Shown here piece by piece: positions 1 through 32,000 of a stretch of DNA of 32,000 nucleotides. Location: assembly GCF_039383305.1 (NCBI RefSeq), contig NZ_CP135009.1, positions 1 through 32,000 on the forward strand, given 5' to 3'. The position numbers were made by a program, and so were the translations under genes. Each line of letters begins with the position of its first letter. Position 1 is the first letter of the stretch. The notes beneath the pieces are model-generated. The model was not told the DNA's origin. It saw only the letters and a program-made list of their open reading frames with translations, and did no database searches. This DNA comes from Candidatus Saccharimonadota bacterium. Its GTDB lineage: Bacteria; Pseudomonadota; Gammaproteobacteria; Enterobacterales; Enterobacteriaceae.

Positions 1-1875
1 ATGTTAGAAAAAAAATATGATGTCATCGTAATTGGAGGAGGTCATGCTGGAATTGAAGCGTCTTCGGCAGCTGCTAGAATGAATTGTCGTACTTTATTGC
101 TTACTCAAAATAAAAAAACTATTGGTACTCTTTCTTGTAATCCTTCTGTTGGAGGGATTGGAAAAGGACAATTGGTTAAAGAAATTGATGCATTAGGTGG
201 TTTAATGGCAATTGCAACAGATTTTTCAGGAATACAATTTAAAATTTTAAATGTAAGAAAGGGTCCAGCTGTAAGATCTACACGTGCGCAGGTAGATAGA
301 ACATTATATGCTCAAAAAATTCAAAATCTTTTAAAATCACAAAAAAATTTGACTATTATCGAAGATGAAGTTCAAAAATTAATTATAAAAAATAATAAAA
401 TTATTGGAGTATTAACATTAAATTTAATAACTTATTATAGTGTTTCTGTAGTTTTAACTGCTGGTACATTTTTAGGGGGAAAAATTTATTTTGGTTCGAC
501 TGTTTTGGAAGGAGGACGTTTTAAAGATAAATCTTCTAAAGCTTTGTCTCAAAATTTATGTAATTTACCTTTTCGTATTCGTAGATTAAAAACAGGTACT
601 CCCCCTCGAATAGATAAGAATAGTATTAATTTTTTTTCTTTAGAAAAACAATTTAGTGATAATCCTATACCAGTTTTTTCTTTTTTAGGAAAAATTTCTC
701 AACATCCTGCTCAAGTACCATGTTATATTACTTATACTACAGAAAAAACTCATAATTTAATTTTTAAAAATTTAAAAAAAAGTCCTTTATATTCTGGAAT
801 TATAAAAAGTTTAGGACCTAGATATTGTCCTTCTATTGAAGATAAGATTGTTCGTTTTCCTGATAAAATTCGACATCAAATTTTTTTAGAACCTGAGGGT
901 TTAAATAGTCAAATTTTTTATCCTAATGGTATTTCAACTTGTTTACCATTAAATATACAAAAATTATTAATTAATTCTATTCCAGGGTTAGAAAAGGCAT
1001 TAATTGTGCAACCTGGATATGCTGTTGAATATGATTATTTTGATTCAAGAGATTTAAATTTAACTTTAGAATCAAAATTTATTTCAGGATTTTTTTTAGC
1101 TGGACAAATAAATGGTACTACCGGTTATGAAGAAGCAGCAGCTCAAGGAATTTTAGCTGGTTTAAATGCTGCTTTATATTTTAAAAATAAAGATTTATGG
1201 TTTCCTTTAAGAAGTCAGGGATATTTAGGTGTTTTGATAGATGATTTATGTAATAAAGGGACTTTTGAACCTTATCGTATGTTTACTTCTCGAGCTGAAT
1301 ATCGTTTATCTTTACGTGAGAGTAATGCGGATTTAAGATTGACTGAAATTGGTTATAAATTTGGTTTAATAAATGAAAAAAGATGGAAGAGATTATTACA
1401 AAAAAAATTTCATATTAAAAAAGAAATAATGTATTTAAAAAAAAAAATTATTTCATGTAATTCTTCTCGCGCTAAAATTTTGAATTTTTTTTTACCAAAA
1501 AAATTAACTAGTAATTTTTCTGCTTTTAAATTATTAAAACGTCCAGAAATTTTTTATTCAATGTTAATTGATCATAAATATTTTTTAAATAATCTTAGTG
1601 CTCAGGATTTTGAAGCTATTTTAGAATTAGAAACACAAATAAAATATTCTGGATATATTCGACGTCAAATTTCTGAAATTAAAAAATTTTTTTTTTATGA
1701 AAAAACTTTCTTACCAAGAAATTTAGATTATACAAAAATTTACGGATTATCTAATGAAGTATCTTCTAAATTAAATTATTATAAACCTTTTTCTTTAGGT
1801 CAAGCTTCTCGTATTTCTGGAATTACACCAGCAGCAATTTCTATATTATTAATTTTTTTAAAAAAAAAATTTTAA
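1..1875 (+). CDS. mnmG: tRNA uridine 5-carboxymethylaminomethyl modification enzyme MnmG (GidA)
   Basis: 624-aa ORF. It has the N-terminal FAD-binding motif [14 protein letters not shown] and is colinear with E. coli MnmG ([46 protein letters not shown]). Confidence 0.97.
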
Positions 1876-1930
1876 ATATTTTTTAAAATATTTCTTTTTT
1901 AAAAAATATTTTATGATATAATTTATAAAA

Positions 1931-2770
1931 TTTTTTATGATCCAGATTTTTTATGATCCAGATTTTTTATGATCCAGATTTTTTATGATCCAGATTTTTT
2001 ATGATCCAGATTTTTTATGATCCAGATTTTTTATGATCCAGATTTTTTATGATCCAGATTTTTTATGATCCAGATTTTTTATGATCCAGATTTTTTATGA
2101 TCCAGATTTTTTATGATCCAGATTTTTTATGATCCAGATTTTTTATGATCCAGATTTTTTATGATCCAGATTTTTTATGATCCAGATTTTTTATGATCCA
2201 GATTTTTTATGATCCAGATTTTTTATGATCCAGATTTTTTATGATCCAGATTTTTTATGATCCAGATTTTTTATGATCCAGATTTTTTATGATCCAGATT
2301 TTTTATGATCCAGATTTTTTATGATCCAGATTTTTTATGATCCAGATTTTTTATGATCCAGATTTTTTATGATCCAGATTTTTTATGATCCAGATTTTTT
2401 ATGATCCAGATTTTTTATGATCCAGATTTTTTATGATCCAGATTTTTTATGATCCAGATTTTTTATGATCCAGATTTTTTATGATCCAGATTTTTTATGA
2501 TCCAGATTTTTTATGATCCAGATTTTTTATGATCCAGATTTTTTATGATCCAGATTTTTTATGATCCAGATTTTTTATGATCCAGATTTTTTATGATCCA
2601 GATTTTTTATGATCCAGATTTTTTATGATCCAGATTTTTTATGATCCAGATTTTTTATGATCCAGATTTTTTATGATCCAGATTTTTTATGATCCAGATT
2701 TTTTATGATCCAGATTTTTTATGATCCAGATTTTTTATGATCCAGATTTTTTATGATCCAGATTTTTTAT
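1931..2770. repeat. Perfect tandem array of the 16-mer TTTTTTATGATCCAGA: 52 full copies (1931-2762) plus a half unit TTTTTTAT (2763-2770)
   Basis: Direct reading shows a 16-nt period. The 240-nt print pattern of the 60-nt lines recurs exactly and I found no substitutions or indels. TGA or TAA stops fall in all six frames, and no ORF-track entry lies here. Confidence 0.97.
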
Positions 2771-2771
2771 T

Positions 2772-2780
2772 TGTGTAAAT
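2772..2780 (-). promoter_or_regulatory. Candidate DnaA box (ATTTACACA on the minus strand)
   Basis: The plus strand reads TGTGTAAAT and its reverse complement ATTTACACA matches the relaxed consensus TTWTNCACA at 7 of 8 specified positions, with the CACA core intact. It lies 2 nt after the last repeat half unit. This is a single site judged by eye only. Confidence 0.25.
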
Positions 2781-2792
2781 TATTATAAAAAT

Positions 2793-5213
<2,421 letters not shown>

Positions 5214-5266
5214 TTAAAAAAAATTTTTTAAAAAAATGTTTAATTTATAATAATATTTTTTTTTTT

Positions 5267-6373
5267 TTATAAATGTAAAGGCATAATAATAAAACAAATT
5301 TTAGGTTTTTCTTTTGATTGTATTTGAATACTAGTAATAGGTTTTTTAAATAAAAAATCAATTTCTTGAGTTTGTATAATATTTAATGTATCTAATAAAT
5401 AGAAGACATTTAATGAAAATTCAATATTTTCAGATATTTTTTTTATTTTTAGAATTTCTTTTGATTTTTCATCATTTTGATTGTTTGTTCTAATAATTAA
5501 TTTTTTTTTAAAAAATTGTAATGTAACTCCTTTAAAAATTGTATTGCATAAAACAGAGGCTCGTAATAAAGCTTCTTTTAATGGTTGAGAAAGAATTGAA
5601 ATTCTTAGGATAGGTGGTAATAATAAAATTTCTTTATAATTTGGAAAATCACCTTCTAGTAATTTTGTAGTTAATTTAAGATTTTCTATATAAAAGATAA
5701 TATCATGATGACTAATAATTAATTTAATTTGATTTTTAGTATTTTCTAACAAATGTATTAATTCTATAATACATTTTTTATGTAATATAATAGAAAAATT
5801 AGGTATTTTTTTTTTAAAAATAATTTTATAAATTGCCATTCTATGTCCATCAGTAGCGACACTATAGAGAATATTATTTTTAACTTCAATTAACATTCCA
5901 TTTAAATAATTTCGTACATCTTGATTAGCAATGGCAATTTGTGTCATAGAAATAATGTTTTTAAATTTTTTTTGGGATAAAGAAAATATAATATTTTTTT
6001 GTGTATGATTAAATTTAGGAAAATTTTCAGACGGTAATGTTATCATATGAAAATGAGAATTAAAAATTTTAATTTGAAAAATATTATTATTTATTGAAAA
6101 ATTTAATTGTGTTTTTGGAGGAATATTACGACAAATATTCAATAATTTTTTTCCTGAAATAGTAATTTTTCCAGTTTCTTGAATATTAAATTTTTCTTTT
6201 TTTATAAAAATACATAGTTCTAAATCTAAATTAGAGCAAGTTAAAGTCATTCCTTTTTCAGAAATTTCTAATAGTACATTTTCTAAAATAGGAAAAATAG
6301 GATTTTTTGTTAAAATATTACTTATTTTTTTAAAAGAATTTAAAAATATTTCTTTTTGTATAGTAAATTGCAT
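5267..6373 (-). CDS. dnaN: DNA polymerase III beta sliding clamp
   Basis: 368-aa ORF, matching the E. coli length of 366 aa. The N-terminus MQFTIQKE and the C-terminus IIMPLHL parallel E. coli MKFTVERE and VVMPMRL. It lies directly downstream of dnaA, with only 4 nt between them. Confidence 0.93.
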   Translation of the reverse strand: MQFTIQKEIFLNSFKKISNILTKNPIFPILENVLLEISEKGMTLTCSNLDLELCIFIKKEKFNIQETGKITISGKKLLNICRNIPPKTQLNFSINNNIFQIKIFNSHFHMITLPSENFPKFNHTQKNIIFSLSQKKFKNIISMTQIAIANQDVRNYLNGMLIEVKNNILYSVATDGHRMAIYKIIFKKKIPNFSIILHKKCIIELIHLLENTKNQIKLIISHHDIIFYIENLKLTTKLLEGDFPNYKEILLLPPILRISILSQPLKEALLRASVLCNTIFKGVTLQFFKKKLIIRTNNQNDEKSKEILKIKKISENIEFSLNVFYLLDTLNIIQTQEIDFLFKKPITSIQIQSKEKPKICFIIMPLHL

Positions 6374-6377
6374 AAGA

Positions 6378-7718
6378 TTATAAAGATAGTTTATATAGTA
6401 AATTTTTGAAATTTATTAAAATTTCAGGATTATTTTTTTTTAATTTTTTTATTTTTCGACATGCATGTAAAATTGTTGTATGATCTCGTCCTCCAAAAAA
6501 AATTCCAATTTCTGGTAAACTATATTGTGTTAATTTTTTAGTTAAAGAGATAGCAATTTGTCGCGGATGTGAAATTGATTTTGATCTTTTTTTTGATAAT
6601 AAATCTTTTATAGTAATGTTATAATGTTCTGATACTTTTTTTAAAATTTTTTTTACTGTTATTTTTTTTTTTTGAGATTGAATTTGGTCTTTTAAGGCAA
6701 ATTGAGCTAATTCAATAGTAATTTCTTTTTGAGTAAATTGAGCATGCATTTTAATTTTATTTAGAGCACCTTCTAATTCTCTGATATTAAAATATAAATT
6801 TTTAGCTATGAATTTTGCTACTTTATATGGTAAAAAAATTTTTTTTAAATTAGATTTTTGTATTAAAATTTTAATTCTTGTTTTTAATTCGGGCGGGTGA
6901 ATAGCAACAGTAATACCCCATCCAAAACGAGATTTTAAACGTTCTGCAATACCTGGTAGTTTTTGTGGGTAGCAATCAGAGGTTAAAATAATTTTATGAT
7001 TTCCTTCAAAAAGTGTATTAAAAGTGTGAAATAATTCTTCTTGTGAACGTTTTTTTTTAGAAAAAAATTGAATATCATCAATTAAAAGCGTGTTTACAGA
7101 ACGATAATATTTTTTAAATTCTTCAATAGAATTATTTTTTAATGATTTTACCATATTTTGTACAAATTTTTCTGAATGTATATAAATTACTTTATTAGAA
7201 AATTTTTTAGATAAAATACAATTTCCAATAGCATGTAACAAATGTGTTTTTCCTAATCCTGTATTTCCATAAATGAATAATGGATTATATGTTGTTGTAT
7301 TTAGATTGTTAGCTATTTGTAACGATGAATATTTTGCTAATTGATTAGATTTTCCTTCAATAAAATTGTTAAAATTATATTTTTTATTAATTGTAATTTG
7401 AGAATAATTTTTTTTTTTTTTAAATTTTTGATTATTTATTTCTTCTTTTTTCTTAAGATTTTTTGTATTAGATTCTTTAGGGAGTATTTGTAATACAATA
7501 CAAGGAGGTTTTATTCTATAAAATTTATGTAATAATTGGTTAAAATTTTTAATGTATTTATTTTTGATCCAATTAAGAATAAATTCATTTGGAGTATAAA
7601 GATGTAAAATATTATTATGAATTTTAGCTTTTAATGGTCGTATCCAAATAGTAAATTCTGTAGGTGTTAATTTTTTTTTTAGATGTGATAAACATTTTTT
7701 CCAAATTGAAAGAGACAT
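6378..7718 (-). CDS. dnaA: Chromosomal replication initiator DnaA
   Basis: 446-aa ORF. MSLSIWKKCLSHLKKKLTPTEFTIWIRPLKA matches E. coli [31 protein letters not shown]. Walker A GNTGLGKTHLLHA and the domain IV DNA-contact segment FGGRDHTTILHACRKI are conserved. Confidence 0.98.
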   Translation of the reverse strand: MSLSIWKKCLSHLKKKLTPTEFTIWIRPLKAKIHNNILHLYTPNEFILNWIKNKYIKNFNQLLHKFYRIKPPCIVLQILPKESNTKNLKKKEEINNQKFKKKKNYSQITINKKYNFNNFIEGKSNQLAKYSSLQIANNLNTTTYNPLFIYGNTGLGKTHLLHAIGNCILSKKFSNKVIYIHSEKFVQNMVKSLKNNSIEEFKKYYRSVNTLLIDDIQFFSKKKRSQEELFHTFNTLFEGNHKIILTSDCYPQKLPGIAERLKSRFGWGITVAIHPPELKTRIKILIQKSNLKKIFLPYKVAKFIAKNLYFNIRELEGALNKIKMHAQFTQKEITIELAQFALKDQIQSQKKKITVKKILKKVSEHYNITIKDLLSKKRSKSISHPRQIAISLTKKLTQYSLPEIGIFFGGRDHTTILHACRKIKKLKKNNPEILINFKNLLYKLSL

Positions 7719-7948
7719 AAATTTTCCTAAAATTAGAAAAAAATATATTATTTTTGTATTATATTTTTTTATGATAAATTAATGTTACTTTTTAATTTTT
7801 TTTTAAATATTTATTTTGATTTTAATATTATTTGTAAATTAAAATAATTAATTATAAAATATTTAAAAAATTTATATTTTTTTTAAAAAAAATATTTTTA
7901 TATTTATAATATAAAAATTTTATAATATGTTTTTAAGGAATTTTAAAA

Positions 7949-8083
7949 ATGAAACGTACTTTTCAACCTTCTTGCATTAAACGAAAACGTTCTCATGGTT
8001 TTCGTGTTCGTATGTCTACGAAAAATGGGAGATGTATTATTGCGCGTCGACGTTTTAAATTACGTCGTATTTTAAGTGCATAA
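7949..8083 (+). CDS. rpmH: 50S ribosomal protein L34
   Basis: This gene is not in the ORF track because it is too short. My translation is [44 protein letters not shown] (44 aa), against E. coli [35 protein letters not shown]. An AAGGAA sequence lies 8 nt upstream of the ATG. Confidence 0.95.
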
Positions 8084-8108
8084 TTTTAACATAGAAATAA
8101 TTAAAAAT

Positions 8109-8453
8109 ATGAAAAATTTTTCATTTCACAAAAATTTACATTTAAAAAAAACAAAAGATTTTAATTATGTATATCAAAATCATCAAAAAAAGATTACTTC
8201 TGAATTGATAGTATTAGGTCGATTGAATTGTTTTAATTATCCTCGATTAGGAATTTCTATTTCTAAAAAAAAAATAAAATATTCATGGAATAGAAATCGA
8301 ATTAAAAGAGTTATTAAAGAATGTTTTAGATTATTACAATTTTATTTAATTTCTATGGATTTTATAGTTATTGTCAGAAAAAATATTAGTTTTTTAAATA
8401 ATTATGCACTTGCAAATATTATTAAGAAATTGTGGTTTTATAAATCTTTTTAG
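8109..8453 (+). CDS. rnpA: RNase P protein component
   Basis: The ORF-track frame is 8076-8453. MKNFSFHKNLHLKKTKDFNYVYQ aligns with the E. coli RnpA N-terminus [23 protein letters not shown], and RNRIKR and MDFIVIVRK are conserved. A GTG at 8076 overlapping rpmH by 8 nt is an alternative start. Confidence 0.9.
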   Translation: MKNFSFHKNLHLKKTKDFNYVYQNHQKKITSELIVLGRLNCFNYPRLGISISKKKIKYSWNRNRIKRVIKECFRLLQFYLISMDFIVIVRKNISFLNNYALANIIKKLWFYKSF

Positions 8454-8520
8454 AATTTTAATATTTTATGAAGAAATTTTTAATATATTTTAAATTTTTT
8501 AAGTTATGAGAAAATTAATT

Positions 8521-10125
8521 ATGGATTTTCAACGTTATTTTTTTATTTTTATAATATTAATTTTATCTTTTTTTTTATTTAGAGCATGGAATTTAGAAAA
8601 TAATATTTCTAATAATGTTGATATAAATTTAAAAAATAGAAAAAACATAAATTTAAATTTTATTCAAGATTTTAAAAGAAAATATATAAATGTTCGTACA
8701 GATGTTCTTTCTCTTAATTTAAATTTATTAGGTGGAGATGTTGAAGAAGCAGATTTATTATTATATAAAAAAAATTTAAAAGAAAAAAAATCTTTTACTT
8801 TATTAAAAAATAAAAAAAATTTTTTATATAAAATTGTTAGTGGAATTTCTGGTAAAGAGGGAATAGATTTTTTAGATTTTCAAAAACGTCCATTATATTT
8901 AGTAAATTTTGGATTGTATCGTTTTAAAAAAAATGAAAAAATTTTAAAAGTTCCTTTATTTTGGAAATCTTCTACAGGTATTTTATATATAAAAACATTT
9001 ATTTTTAAAAAAGGTCATTATGATTTTGATATTGAATATTCAATTTATAATCCTTTAAATCAAAAATTAAACATAATTTTATTTTCAGAAATACATCAAA
9101 TGAATTTTTTTTCTAAATATTTAAAAAATACTTGGAGAAATTTTTTAAAATTAAAAACTTATTATGGTGCTGCTTATTCTTGTGATCAAAAAAATTATAT
9201 AAAATATAGTTTTGATTCAATTAAGAAAAATAAAAATTTTTCTTTAAGTACTAAACATGGTTGGATTTCTATGTTACAACAATATTTTTCAGTAGCTATT
9301 ATTCCTAGAAATAATATTACTCATTATATTTATTCTTATTTTTTAAAAAATAATATTTCTGTTATTGGGATTTCTTCAGAAAATAAAATTATTTCCCCTC
9401 ATTCTATGAAAAAGTTTATTTTTACATATTGGGTAGGTCCATCTATTTATAAATATTTAAATAAAATAGTACCTTATTTAACATATTTAATTGATTATGG
9501 GTGGTTTTGGTTATTATCGCAAGTATTTTTACAAATATTATTATTTTTTTATAGTTTTTTGCATAGTTGGGGATTATCAATTATTTTCATTACTGTTTGT
9601 GTTCGGAGTATTATGTTTCCTTTAATGAAATTACAATATAGATCTATGAATAAAATTAAAAAAATACAACCGGAAATTTCTAAAATTCAAAAAAAATTTT
9701 TTGGTAACACGATATTAATAAATCAAAAAATATTAGCATTATATCAAAAAGAAAATATTAATCCTTTAAATAGTTTTTTACCTATGTTAATTCAAATGCC
9801 AATTTTTTTAGCATTATATCATATGTTAATGGAAGCAGTAGAATTAAGACATTCTTCTTTTTTATTTTGGATTAAAGATTTATCTAATCAAGATGAATAT
9901 TATATTTTGCCTTTTTTAATGGGTTTAAGTATGTTTTTTATGAATTTAAATACTTCTAAAAATGATTCAAATTTAATATCTTCAAAAATGATATATTTTA
10001 TTCCTATAATGTTTACAATATTTTTTTCATGTTTTCCATCAGGTTTAGTTTTATATTATCTAATTAGTAATTTAGTAACTATTTTACAACAAAAAATTAT
10101 ATTTTTTAAATATTTTAAAAATTAA
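8521..10125 (+). CDS. yidC: Membrane protein insertase YidC
   Basis: The ORF-track frame is 8506-10125. MDFQRYFFIFIILILSFFLFRAW aligns with E. coli [23 protein letters not shown], so the ATG at 8521 is preferred and 8506 is an alternative. The C-terminal insertase core includes PMLIQMPIFLALY and PSGLVLYY. Confidence 0.93.
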   Translation: MDFQRYFFIFIILILSFFLFRAWNLENNISNNVDINLKNRKNINLNFIQDFKRKYINVRTDVLSLNLNLLGGDVEEADLLLYKKNLKEKKSFTLLKNKKNFLYKIVSGISGKEGIDFLDFQKRPLYLVNFGLYRFKKNEKILKVPLFWKSSTGILYIKTFIFKKGHYDFDIEYSIYNPLNQKLNIILFSEIHQMNFFSKYLKNTWRNFLKLKTYYGAAYSCDQKNYIKYSFDSIKKNKNFSLSTKHGWISMLQQYFSVAIIPRNNITHYIYSYFLKNNISVIGISSENKIISPHSMKKFIFTYWVGPSIYKYLNKIVPYLTYLIDYGWFWLLSQVFLQILLFFYSFLHSWGLSIIFITVCVRSIMFPLMKLQYRSMNKIKKIQPEISKIQKKFFGNTILINQKILALYQKENINPLNSFLPMLIQMPIFLALYHMLMEAVELRHSSFLFWIKDLSNQDEYYILPFLMGLSMFFMNLNTSKNDSNLISSKMIYFIPIMFTIFFSCFPSGLVLYYLISNLVTILQQKIIFFKYFKN

Positions 10126-15974: not shown

Positions 15975-16904
15975 ATGTTTAATTTAAAGAAAGAAAATAA
16001 GAGATTTTTTTTTTCTTTTACAAATTTTTTTAAAAAAACTAAAAATTTATTTTTTAAAAAAATTCAAAATATATTTTTTAAAAAAAAAATAGATGATGAA
16101 GTTTTCTTAAATATAAAAGAAATTTTATTGTTAGCTGATGTAGGGATTTCTACGACAAATAATATTTTAAAAAAATTTAAAAAAAAAATTCAAGATAAAA
16201 ATATTGTAAGTACTAAAGAAGCTTATTTAATTTTTAAACAACAATTATGTAACATTTTATTACAAGTAAAAGATTCAGTTCAGTATCATGCGTTTGATAT
16301 TCGAGTTATTTTATGTGTAGGGGTAAATGGAGTAGGAAAAACTAGTACACTCGTAAAATTAGCTTATTTTTATCAAAAAAAAAAAAAAAGGGTTTTATTA
16401 GTAGCAGGAGATACCTTTAGGGCAGCAGCAATAGATCAATTAAAAGAATGGGGGAAATTATATAAAATTCCGGTATTTTATAAAAGTTTAGGTATTGATC
16501 CTTCTTCAGTTATTTTTGATTCTTTAAGATATGCTTTAATAAAAAAATTTGATATGATTTTAATTGATACAGCAGGACGATTACATAATAAATTACATTT
16601 GATGCAAGAATTACAAAAAATGGATCGCGTAATTAAAAAATATAATGCTATAGTTTTTCAGGAAACTATTTTAATTTTAGATGCATGTATTGGTCAAAAT
16701 TCTATTCAACAAACTCGTTTTTTTAATCAAATTATACCTTTATCTAGTATTATTATTACTAAATTAGATGGAACTGCTAAAGGGGGTATTTTATTAGCTA
16801 TAGTAAATGAATTTTATTTACCAATTAAGTACATTTGTATTGGTGAAAGTATTGAAGATTTAGTACGTTTTAATGTACATAAATTTATTGAATCTTTATT
16901 TTAA
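15975..16904 (+). CDS. ftsY: Signal recognition particle receptor FtsY (NG domain only, no acidic A domain)
   Basis: 309-aa ORF with GVNGVGKTSTLVKLA, VAGDTFRAAAIDQL, DTAGRLHNK and TKLDGTAKGG. The N-terminus KRFFFSFTNFFKKTKNLFFKKIQNIFFKKKIDDEVF aligns with the E. coli A/N-junction segment GFFARLKRSLLKTKENLGSGFISLFRGKKIDDDLF. Confidence 0.95.
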   Translation: MFNLKKENKRFFFSFTNFFKKTKNLFFKKIQNIFFKKKIDDEVFLNIKEILLLADVGISTTNNILKKFKKKIQDKNIVSTKEAYLIFKQQLCNILLQVKDSVQYHAFDIRVILCVGVNGVGKTSTLVKLAYFYQKKKKRVLLVAGDTFRAAAIDQLKEWGKLYKIPVFYKSLGIDPSSVIFDSLRYALIKKFDMILIDTAGRLHNKLHLMQELQKMDRVIKKYNAIVFQETILILDACIGQNSIQQTRFFNQIIPLSSIIITKLDGTAKGGILLAIVNEFYLPIKYICIGESIEDLVRFNVHKFIESLF

Positions 16905-31490: not shown

Positions 31491-32000
31491 TTAATTTTTT
31501 GTAACTTGATTAAAATCTAATTCTACGGGGGTAGATCTGCCAAAAATAGATATGGAAACTTTGAGTCTATTTTTTTCATAATCAATATTTTCTACAATAC
31601 CATTAAAATCTGAAAAAGGTCCTTCTTTTACTCGTATAGTTTCTCCTGGTTCAAAAATAATTTTGGGTCTAGGTTTATTATGAATTTTTTTTAATTTTTG
31701 TAAAATTTTATCAATTTCTTTCTTATTAATTGGGGTAGGTTTATCAGGAGAGCTACCGACAAAACCTGTAACTTTAGGTAATTTTCGAATGACATGCCAA
31801 TTTACATTATTCATAATCATATATACTAAAATATATCCTGGAAAAAATTTATATTCACTTTTTTTTCGTTGACCTTTAATAATTTCGATTACTTCTTCAG
31901 AAGGTACTAAAATTTTTCCAAATTCTTTATTTAAATTATTTAAAGTAATATATTCACGAATAGATTCTGCTACAGTATTTTCAAATCCAGAAAATGCTTG
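31491..32000 (-). CDS. nusG: Transcription termination/antitermination factor NusG (5' end outside the window)
   Basis: The ORF track starts at an internal Met (31820), but the frame stays open to the window edge. The upstream translation [18 protein letters not shown]...[31 protein letters not shown] matches E. coli NusG QAFSGFEGRVATSLREHI...[31 protein letters not shown]. The KOW region [45 protein letters not shown] is conserved. Confidence 0.95.

Follow-up and report, generated by a model that had tools for sequence, protein, structure and literature searches.

A 16-bp tandem repeat between mnmG and gyrB in the Buchnera of Nippolachnus piri, probably a lineage-specific minisatellite whose deposited length was set by assembly

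The 16-bp tandem repeat present between mnmG and gyrB in Buchnera aphidicola of the aphid Nippolachnus piri is real. It is likely to be a lineage-specific, non-coding minisatellite that was generated by slippage in the remnant of a lost atp operon, with a length and uniformity in the deposited record that were set by the assembly.

The window, which is the whole stretch of 32,000 nt that was analysed, consists of the first 32 kb of CP135009, the Buchnera genome of N. piri sample 10. The gene mnmG starts at base 1, the start of the window being the start of the genome record, and the gene order is that of Buchnera. The features in and around the mnmG-gyrB spacer, followed by the gene order of the window, are:

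1..1875, plus strand: mnmG (gidA), TIGR00136 MnmG with 845 bits, 100% identical to a Buchnera aphidicola protein
1876..1930, no strand: left unique flank, conserved with the spacer in Buchnera of Tuberolachnus salignus and joined to the repeat in five Logan contigs
1914..1922, plus strand: extended -10-like motif TGATATAAT, perfect (regex search), 8 nt upstream of the array and pointing into it; at 2112-2120 in the T. salignus locus
1931..2762, no strand: tandem array, full units, 52 exact copies of TTTTTTATGATCCAGA in the deposited record
2763..2770, no strand: partial unit TTTTTTAT at the end of the array, equal to the first 8 nt of the unit
2771..2792, no strand: right unique flank, adjoining the array on the gyrB side with the sequence TTTTTTATTTGTGTAAATT, without GGCAGG/CCTGCC hairpin
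2793..5201, minus strand: gyrB, NF011501 and TIGR01059 GyrB, identical to XAJ79672.1, convergent with mnmG
Gene order: mnmG / gyrB-dnaN-dnaA / rpmH-rnpA-yidC-mnmE / tRNA-Phe / groES-groEL / dnaC-rsmD / ftsY-rpoH-metE / rpoC-rpoB-rplL-rplJ-rplA-rplK-nusG

A truncated nusG (31491-31820) was considered at the far end of the window and rejected, as the ORF simply runs off the window end.

When analysing the spacer, exact counting of the 16-mer gave 52 head-to-tail copies at 1931-2762, and TRF called the array at 1930-2770 with a period of 16, 52.6 copies, 100% matches, no indels and a score of 1682. The description given in an earlier reading of the sequence alone (the sequence-only reading), 52 perfect copies and a half unit at 1931-2770, is thus true of the deposited sequence, and the gene ends at 1875 and 2793 agree with its placement of the array over most of the 917-nt gap between the convergent mnmG and gyrB. 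An 8-nt direct repeat (TTTTTTAT ... TTTTTTAT), a putative substrate for slippage, marks both ends of the array, and the unit is found nowhere else in the window, even when two mismatches are allowed (shuffles give 0.19 matches). Three further claims of the same reading were borne out: the array is non-coding, in that it shares no bases with any ORF of at least 20 aa; the unit is richer in G+C (25%) than its neighbours, the other 20 spacers of the window averaging 8.8% and the array's own flanks 5.2%; and the rest of the window is compact, with other spacers of 4-294 nt. Folding revealed no secondary structure in the array (MFE -1.2 kcal/mol over 8 units, z 0.66), Rfam gave no match to it, the sole match in the window being tRNA-Phe, and with contiguous units that lack spacers between them the array is not a CRISPR array.

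In ~100 kb of comparable Buchnera DNA, made up of the rest of the window together with loci of N. piri, T. salignus, Cinara cedri and Acyrthosiphon pisum Buchnera, the best TRF score was 101, which makes the array an outlier by more than 16-fold and, as had been proposed, out of character for a Buchnera chromosome. As a sequence it is a real feature, far beyond chance. The second-strongest tandem repeat of the window, a 24-nt unit in 2.5 copies with 91% matches in the 5' part of ftsY (16026-16086), has a TRF score of 101.

That the repeat is present in the reads was seen in Logan, assemblies that were made independently from raw SRA runs with a different pipeline. Five runs from two accession series carry the array: SRR29339701, SRR29339702, SRR28869277, SRR28869278 and SRR28869279. 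In every one of them the mnmG contig ends 82-84 nt past the stop codon, which is 27-29 nt or 1.7-1.8 units into the array, and the junction between flank and unit is identical, showing that an independent assembler does not traverse the locus. With a graph k of 31, which we take to be the Logan setting, the expected contig end is at position 1959, 30 nt beyond the last flank-specific base 1929 (the periodicity begins at 1930), and two of the contigs end exactly there. For 31-mers to recur, the periodic run has to reach 47 nt, and 2.5 units or fewer would be read through; the breaks inside the array therefore imply at least three tandem units in each of the five read sets. The runs also differ from each other, since at position 39 SRR29339701 has the allele of the window and SRR29339702 that of CP135006, the genome of the second N. 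piri sample, and SRR28869277-79 represent a third lineage, for which mnmG shows 2 differences and a stretch of 9,497 nt in one contig shows 19. The array is older than the ~0.2% divergence among these N. piri samples.

The positions of the contig ends, 1957, 1958 and 1959 in the window, are 1-2 nt apart. The contig of SRR28869278 stops just before position 12 of unit 2, a C that is variable in the second sample (09), and this could be due to C/T heterogeneity in the reads or to graph clean-up at high depth. On the other side of the array, support for the gyrB junction came from the two deposited assemblies only, and full-length GyrB was found only on the two NCBI records; for a guessed cut GyrB product (residues 208-802) no encoding contig is on record. 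None of the Logan assemblies of the five runs has a full-length gyrB and the contig of the SRR28869277-79 lineage stops at window position 4553, so that some feature of gyrB repeatedly breaks short-read graphs; the two N. piri samples differ at codon 251 (4449).

The length and uniformity of the array have to be seen against how the genomes were made. According to Lu et al. 2024 (Sci Data 11:673, PMC11193766), where N. piri sample 10 is CP135009 with 417,660 bp and sample 09 is CP135006 with 417,640 bp, PCR-amplified libraries with inserts of ~250 nt were sequenced on Illumina NovaSeq 2x150 only. Contigs from MEGAHIT were joined in Geneious and seed extension was run in NOVOPlasty (insert 250, k 27-33); drafts that had not closed by then were completed in Geneious by merging NOVOPlasty with MEGAHIT sequences, and circular drafts were polished with Pilon. 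The article (PMC11193766) describes neither long reads nor PCR validation, and the word "repeat" is absent from its text. The authors of NOVOPlasty (PMC5389512) state that tandem repeats longer than the read length cannot be assembled accurately from short reads, and that if no small variations are found the contig is terminated and then restarted beyond the repeat.

The array of sample 10 has a longest exact self-repeat of 825 nt and repeated k-mers at every k tested up to 300, and with its 840 nt it exceeds any read (150 nt) or insert (~250 nt). Since a perfect repeat of 840 bp is longer than both reads and read pairs, its copy number and perfect identity were not measured; the 52.5 copies and the identity are outputs of a reconstruction. 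Reads and inserts of this size, together with seed extension and Pilon, mean that the array length was set by the assembly procedure or that one sample was templated on the other, and the perfect identity in the record would be the uninformative consensus of reads that could not be placed within the array. From such data, and with ten variant units in sample 09, the step taken in the sequence-only reading from perfect identity to very recent expansion or selection cannot be made. It can reasonably be inferred that the array is longer than the largest k of MEGAHIT, presumably 141 by default, could span, because otherwise the authors' contig would carry a short and correct version.

A comparison with CP135006 showed that the two genomes are colinear over 11,875 nt of the window with 13 differences, 10 of which fall inside the 840-nt array against 3 in the other 11 kb. 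Those outside are located at 39 (synonymous, mnmG), 4449 (GyrB I251M) and 5561 (synonymous, dnaN), while the 10 in the array of sample 09 affect units 11, 17, 19, 22, 28, 33, 35, 37, 45 and 47, always in the C of GATC (unit position 12), with C>T in nine units and C>A in one. Of the picture drawn from sample 10, the presence of the array and its deposited length hold in this sister sample and the perfect uniformity does not. The length is identical in the two samples even though they were sequenced separately. For a locus whose size is beyond the reach of the reads, such agreement suggests that the reconstruction was deterministic or templated. The 20 bp by which the two N. piri assemblies differ in total size do not come from the first 11.9 kb.

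The variant units also carry information on what the reads contained. Units of the T type probably exist in sample 09, because Illumina error alone could not win the consensus for a minority variant at the expected depth, and the units are thus probably not all identical in the N. piri lineage. In the array of sample 09 the longest exact repeat is 175 nt and every 200-mer is unique, so that this version could in principle be resolved by overlapping read pairs from ~250-nt fragments and the ~840 bp might then be genuine, which is why the length is not called simply wrong here. The lone C>A unit is hard to make by polishing multi-mapped reads, and suggests that real read-overlap information entered the assembly. 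The spacing of the variant units was examined for signs of a read-length constraint: compared with random placements, the 175-nt longest repeat ranks at the 6th percentile (P about 0.06), and the longest perfect run is unremarkable (P=0.33).

These data bear most directly on the reading that the record is literally correct, with 52.5 identical units in sample 10 that result from very recent slippage expansion or ongoing homogenisation. The equal length of both deposited assemblies, the possibility, in principle, of resolving the sample 09 version from fragments of ~250 nt and the occurrence of a G+C-rich unit among extremely AT-rich spacers, which argues for youth, are all in keeping with it, but reads of 150 nt and inserts of 250 nt cannot give the size of a perfect array of 840 nt, an array that is not resolvable is unlikely to reach the exact length of the sister sample independently, and the units of sample 09 are not all identical. 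We therefore regard a literally correct record as unlikely, although it is the alternative that survives best.

To place the array in the history of the spacer, the mnmG-gyrB locus was compared in Buchnera of A. pisum (APS), Cinara cedri (BCc) and T. salignus. The nearest genome is that of the T. salignus Buchnera, with an MnmG that is 78% identical; its spacer of 253 nt is the same in LN890285.1, OZ035016.1 and one Logan assembly and holds no unit, and neither does the 75-nt spacer of BCc. In APS the eight-gene operon atpBEFHAGDC is located between gidA and gyrB (APS locus 2084-8910), an operon that none of the three Lachninae Buchnera examined has at this site, where their spacers are 75 nt (Cinara cedri locus 1906-1980), 253 nt (T. 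salignus locus 2056-2308) and 917 nt (window 1876-2792). Gene order thus shows the Lachninae spacer as an apparent remnant of the loss of the atp operon from the mnmG-gyrB site, and the extended -10-like motif in front of the array may be a relic of the promoter of that operon.

Alignment of the two nearest spacers revealed a conserved block directly 5' of the array, TATGATATAATTT(A/C)TAAAA, and at the aligned site T. salignus has TTTTTTATAATATATATTTTTAAT where N. piri has TTTTTTATGATCCAGATTTTTTAT. The left part of the T. salignus spacer is colinear with the N. piri flank, a single unit and then the right flank; this in-place match of the unit scores only marginally above shuffles (P=0.056). 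The idea that the unit derives from the 3' arm of a terminator hairpin was also considered and rejected, the alignment being no better than for shuffled cores (P=0.17). The hairpin itself, GGCAGG/CCTGCC, is found beside the gyrB stop in APS (-15.5 kcal/mol, APS locus 8850-8872), BCc (-16.7 kcal/mol, Cinara cedri locus 1925-1955) and T. salignus (-13.9 kcal/mol, T. salignus locus 2270-2300) and is absent in N. piri, where the counterpart at 2763-2792 has no stem. It is probably a convergent terminator that was lost in N. piri; no terminator-like site, and thus no intrinsic terminator, was found at 1700-3000 of the window. Conserved intergenic terminators have been documented in Buchnera (PMC3164680).

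Searches outside the relatives did not find the array elsewhere. An exact 25-mer spanning the junction had no match in 185,579 GTDB species-representative genomes, in JGI metagenome contigs or in IMG/VR, and blastn against the plasmids of PLSDB gave no match to the repeat, a search that the low-complexity filter may limit. The possibility, raised in the sequence-only reading, of an array widespread in published genomes is contradicted by its absence from the sister species and from these GTDB, metagenome, viral and plasmid collections; within this coverage, only the N. piri lineage has the array.

For the minisatellite favoured here, a putative course of events would begin in place, in a piece of the ancestral spacer flanked by the T-rich direct repeat TTTTTTAT; slipped mispairing of these two 8-mers would have made the first duplication and replication slippage the later copies, the setting being a genome of a kind that would generally be reduced in mismatch repair and recombination. 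Core genes for mismatch repair are incomplete in most Buchnera (PMC11665910), and in Portiera of Bemisia tabaci intergenic tandem repeats proliferated alongside the loss of dnaQ, mutL and others (PMC3673631). That a G+C-rich core survives among spacers of 8.8% G+C implies youth or continuing turnover and, taken together with the C>T/A variants, the 25% G+C core suggests a young array that is decaying under AT-biased mutation, for which both C>T and C>A would be the expected direction. The nine C>T units may well go back to a single mutated unit that was copied by multi-unit slippage, and not to nine independent hits: with four G/C positions available in the unit, the probability that nine independent hits all fall on one site is about (1/4)^9 if that site is specified beforehand and (1/4)^8 if it is not.

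A function for the array was approached through the motifs in its unit, which contains GATC and TGATCCAGA, a 7/9 match to a DnaA box. Taken as a selected element, the array would be a cluster titrating DnaA or SeqA near oriC, or a buffer replacing the lost convergent mnmG/gyrB terminator. The location is suggestive, as the array adjoins the gyrB-dnaN-dnaA operon and the der-mnmG spacer (432 nt, AT-rich, directly upstream of window position 1 on the circle, 2770-3201 in its own N. piri contig) contains two perfect DnaA boxes, TTATCCACA, and is likely to be oriC, about 2.1 kb from the array. Further points in this direction are the 52 GATC sites in 840 nt, the hairpin kept beside gyrB in APS, BCc and T. 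salignus that is missing exactly at the array, and the tandem repeat with a DnaA box known on the pTrp plasmid of T. salignus Buchnera (PMC4898801).

The tests of the motifs themselves speak against such an element. Shuffled units contain a 7/9 box in 6% and GATC in 4.5% of cases, and the resemblance to a DnaA box and GATC, being at chance level, was rejected as evidence of function. Both mismatches to the box are a G, at box positions 2 and 8, which probably matter for DnaA binding. A cluster of DnaA boxes would consist of repeated 9-mers of the form TTATNCACA, and the best match in the unit is 7/9; in the window as a whole there is no perfect DnaA box and there are 5 sites with one mismatch against 9.2 expected, which is no enrichment, while the 69 GATC sites outside the array occur at chance frequency. 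The array shows no hairpin or terminator signal, the sister species does without it, and the variant units of sample 09 destroy GATC. With no support for a function found in the ORF, structure, Rfam, DnaA-box and GATC tests, a selected element of either kind is very unlikely, and it is just as improbable that an array of at least 0.8 kb is kept nearly uniform by selection, for titration of an initiation factor or as a terminator substitute, in a polyploid and repair-poor symbiont. The array could buffer convergent transcription incidentally, a role that no tested feature supports.

Pure inflation, meaning a real spacer with one or two units or a host or contaminant satellite wrongly joined to Buchnera, is hardly credible, for although circle closure by seed extension of short reads is prone to looping and the gyrB-side junction has its support in two deposited assemblies, five independent read sets join the mnmG flank to 1.7-1.8 units and then break, with the same junction in all five and at a k where a run below 47 nt would be read through, which excludes the one or two units that the sequence-only reading had allowed for.

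Among known systems, the minisatellite proposed here is most like a bacterial VNTR as used for MLVA typing and formed by slipped-strand mispairing: it has contiguous head-to-tail units within the 10-100 bp type (period 16, at least three units in five read sets), is intergenic, non-coding, lineage-specific and absent in relatives, and shows a bounding partial unit and unit variants with single substitutions. The copy-number polymorphism that defines VNTRs was not seen, the two deposited N. piri arrays being equal in a length set by the assembly, and the deposited copy number of 52.5, which has the same origin, is much higher than in typical VNTRs. Portiera aleyrodidarum of Bemisia tabaci (Sloan & Moran 2013, PMC3673631) likewise has intergenic tandem repeats in a tiny AT-rich endosymbiont genome, where lost replication and repair genes were held responsible for them, but at many loci, with a spike at a unit length of 7 bp, enlarged spacers genome-wide and rearrangements, in contrast to the single 16-bp locus in the compact and syntenic 32-kb window of N. 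piri Buchnera.

Closer in phylogeny are the 18-nt and 55-nt units on the pTrp plasmid of T. salignus Buchnera (PMC4898801), also short-unit tandem repeats in Lachninae Buchnera, which prevented closure of the plasmid from Illumina data. These are located on a plasmid, and the 55-nt unit has a perfect DnaA box and is maybe an origin, whereas the N. piri unit is chromosomal with 7/9 as its best box. As an assembly problem the locus resembles the control region of Gonioctena used as a NOVOPlasty benchmark (PMC5389512), a repeat array longer than the read, with the difference that long reads gave the truth in that case and N. piri has short reads only.

Buchnera chromosomes are a textbook example of structural stasis and lack repeats. 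A chromosomal minisatellite is therefore unusual in Buchnera, and its value is mainly that of a data-quality flag and possibly of a typing marker. In both CP135009 and CP135006 the array appears as finished sequence although the data could not fix its length or its homogeneity, and comparisons of spacer length, non-coding DNA or repeat content based on these genomes should not take 1931-2770 at face value. An array confirmed as long could be of use in typing Buchnera and aphid populations, as a marker that evolves fast, and could be a natural reporter of replication slippage and of heterogeneity within the host, in a symbiont that is polyploid and whose repair is eroded.

The T. salignus Buchnera assemblies also differ in size, with 421,426 bp for LN890285.1 (2016, Illumina), 421,666 bp for CP135003 and 421,661 bp for OZ035016.1. 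This difference of ~240 bp lies outside the mnmG-gyrB spacer, and may correspond to a repeat that was collapsed in the older assembly.
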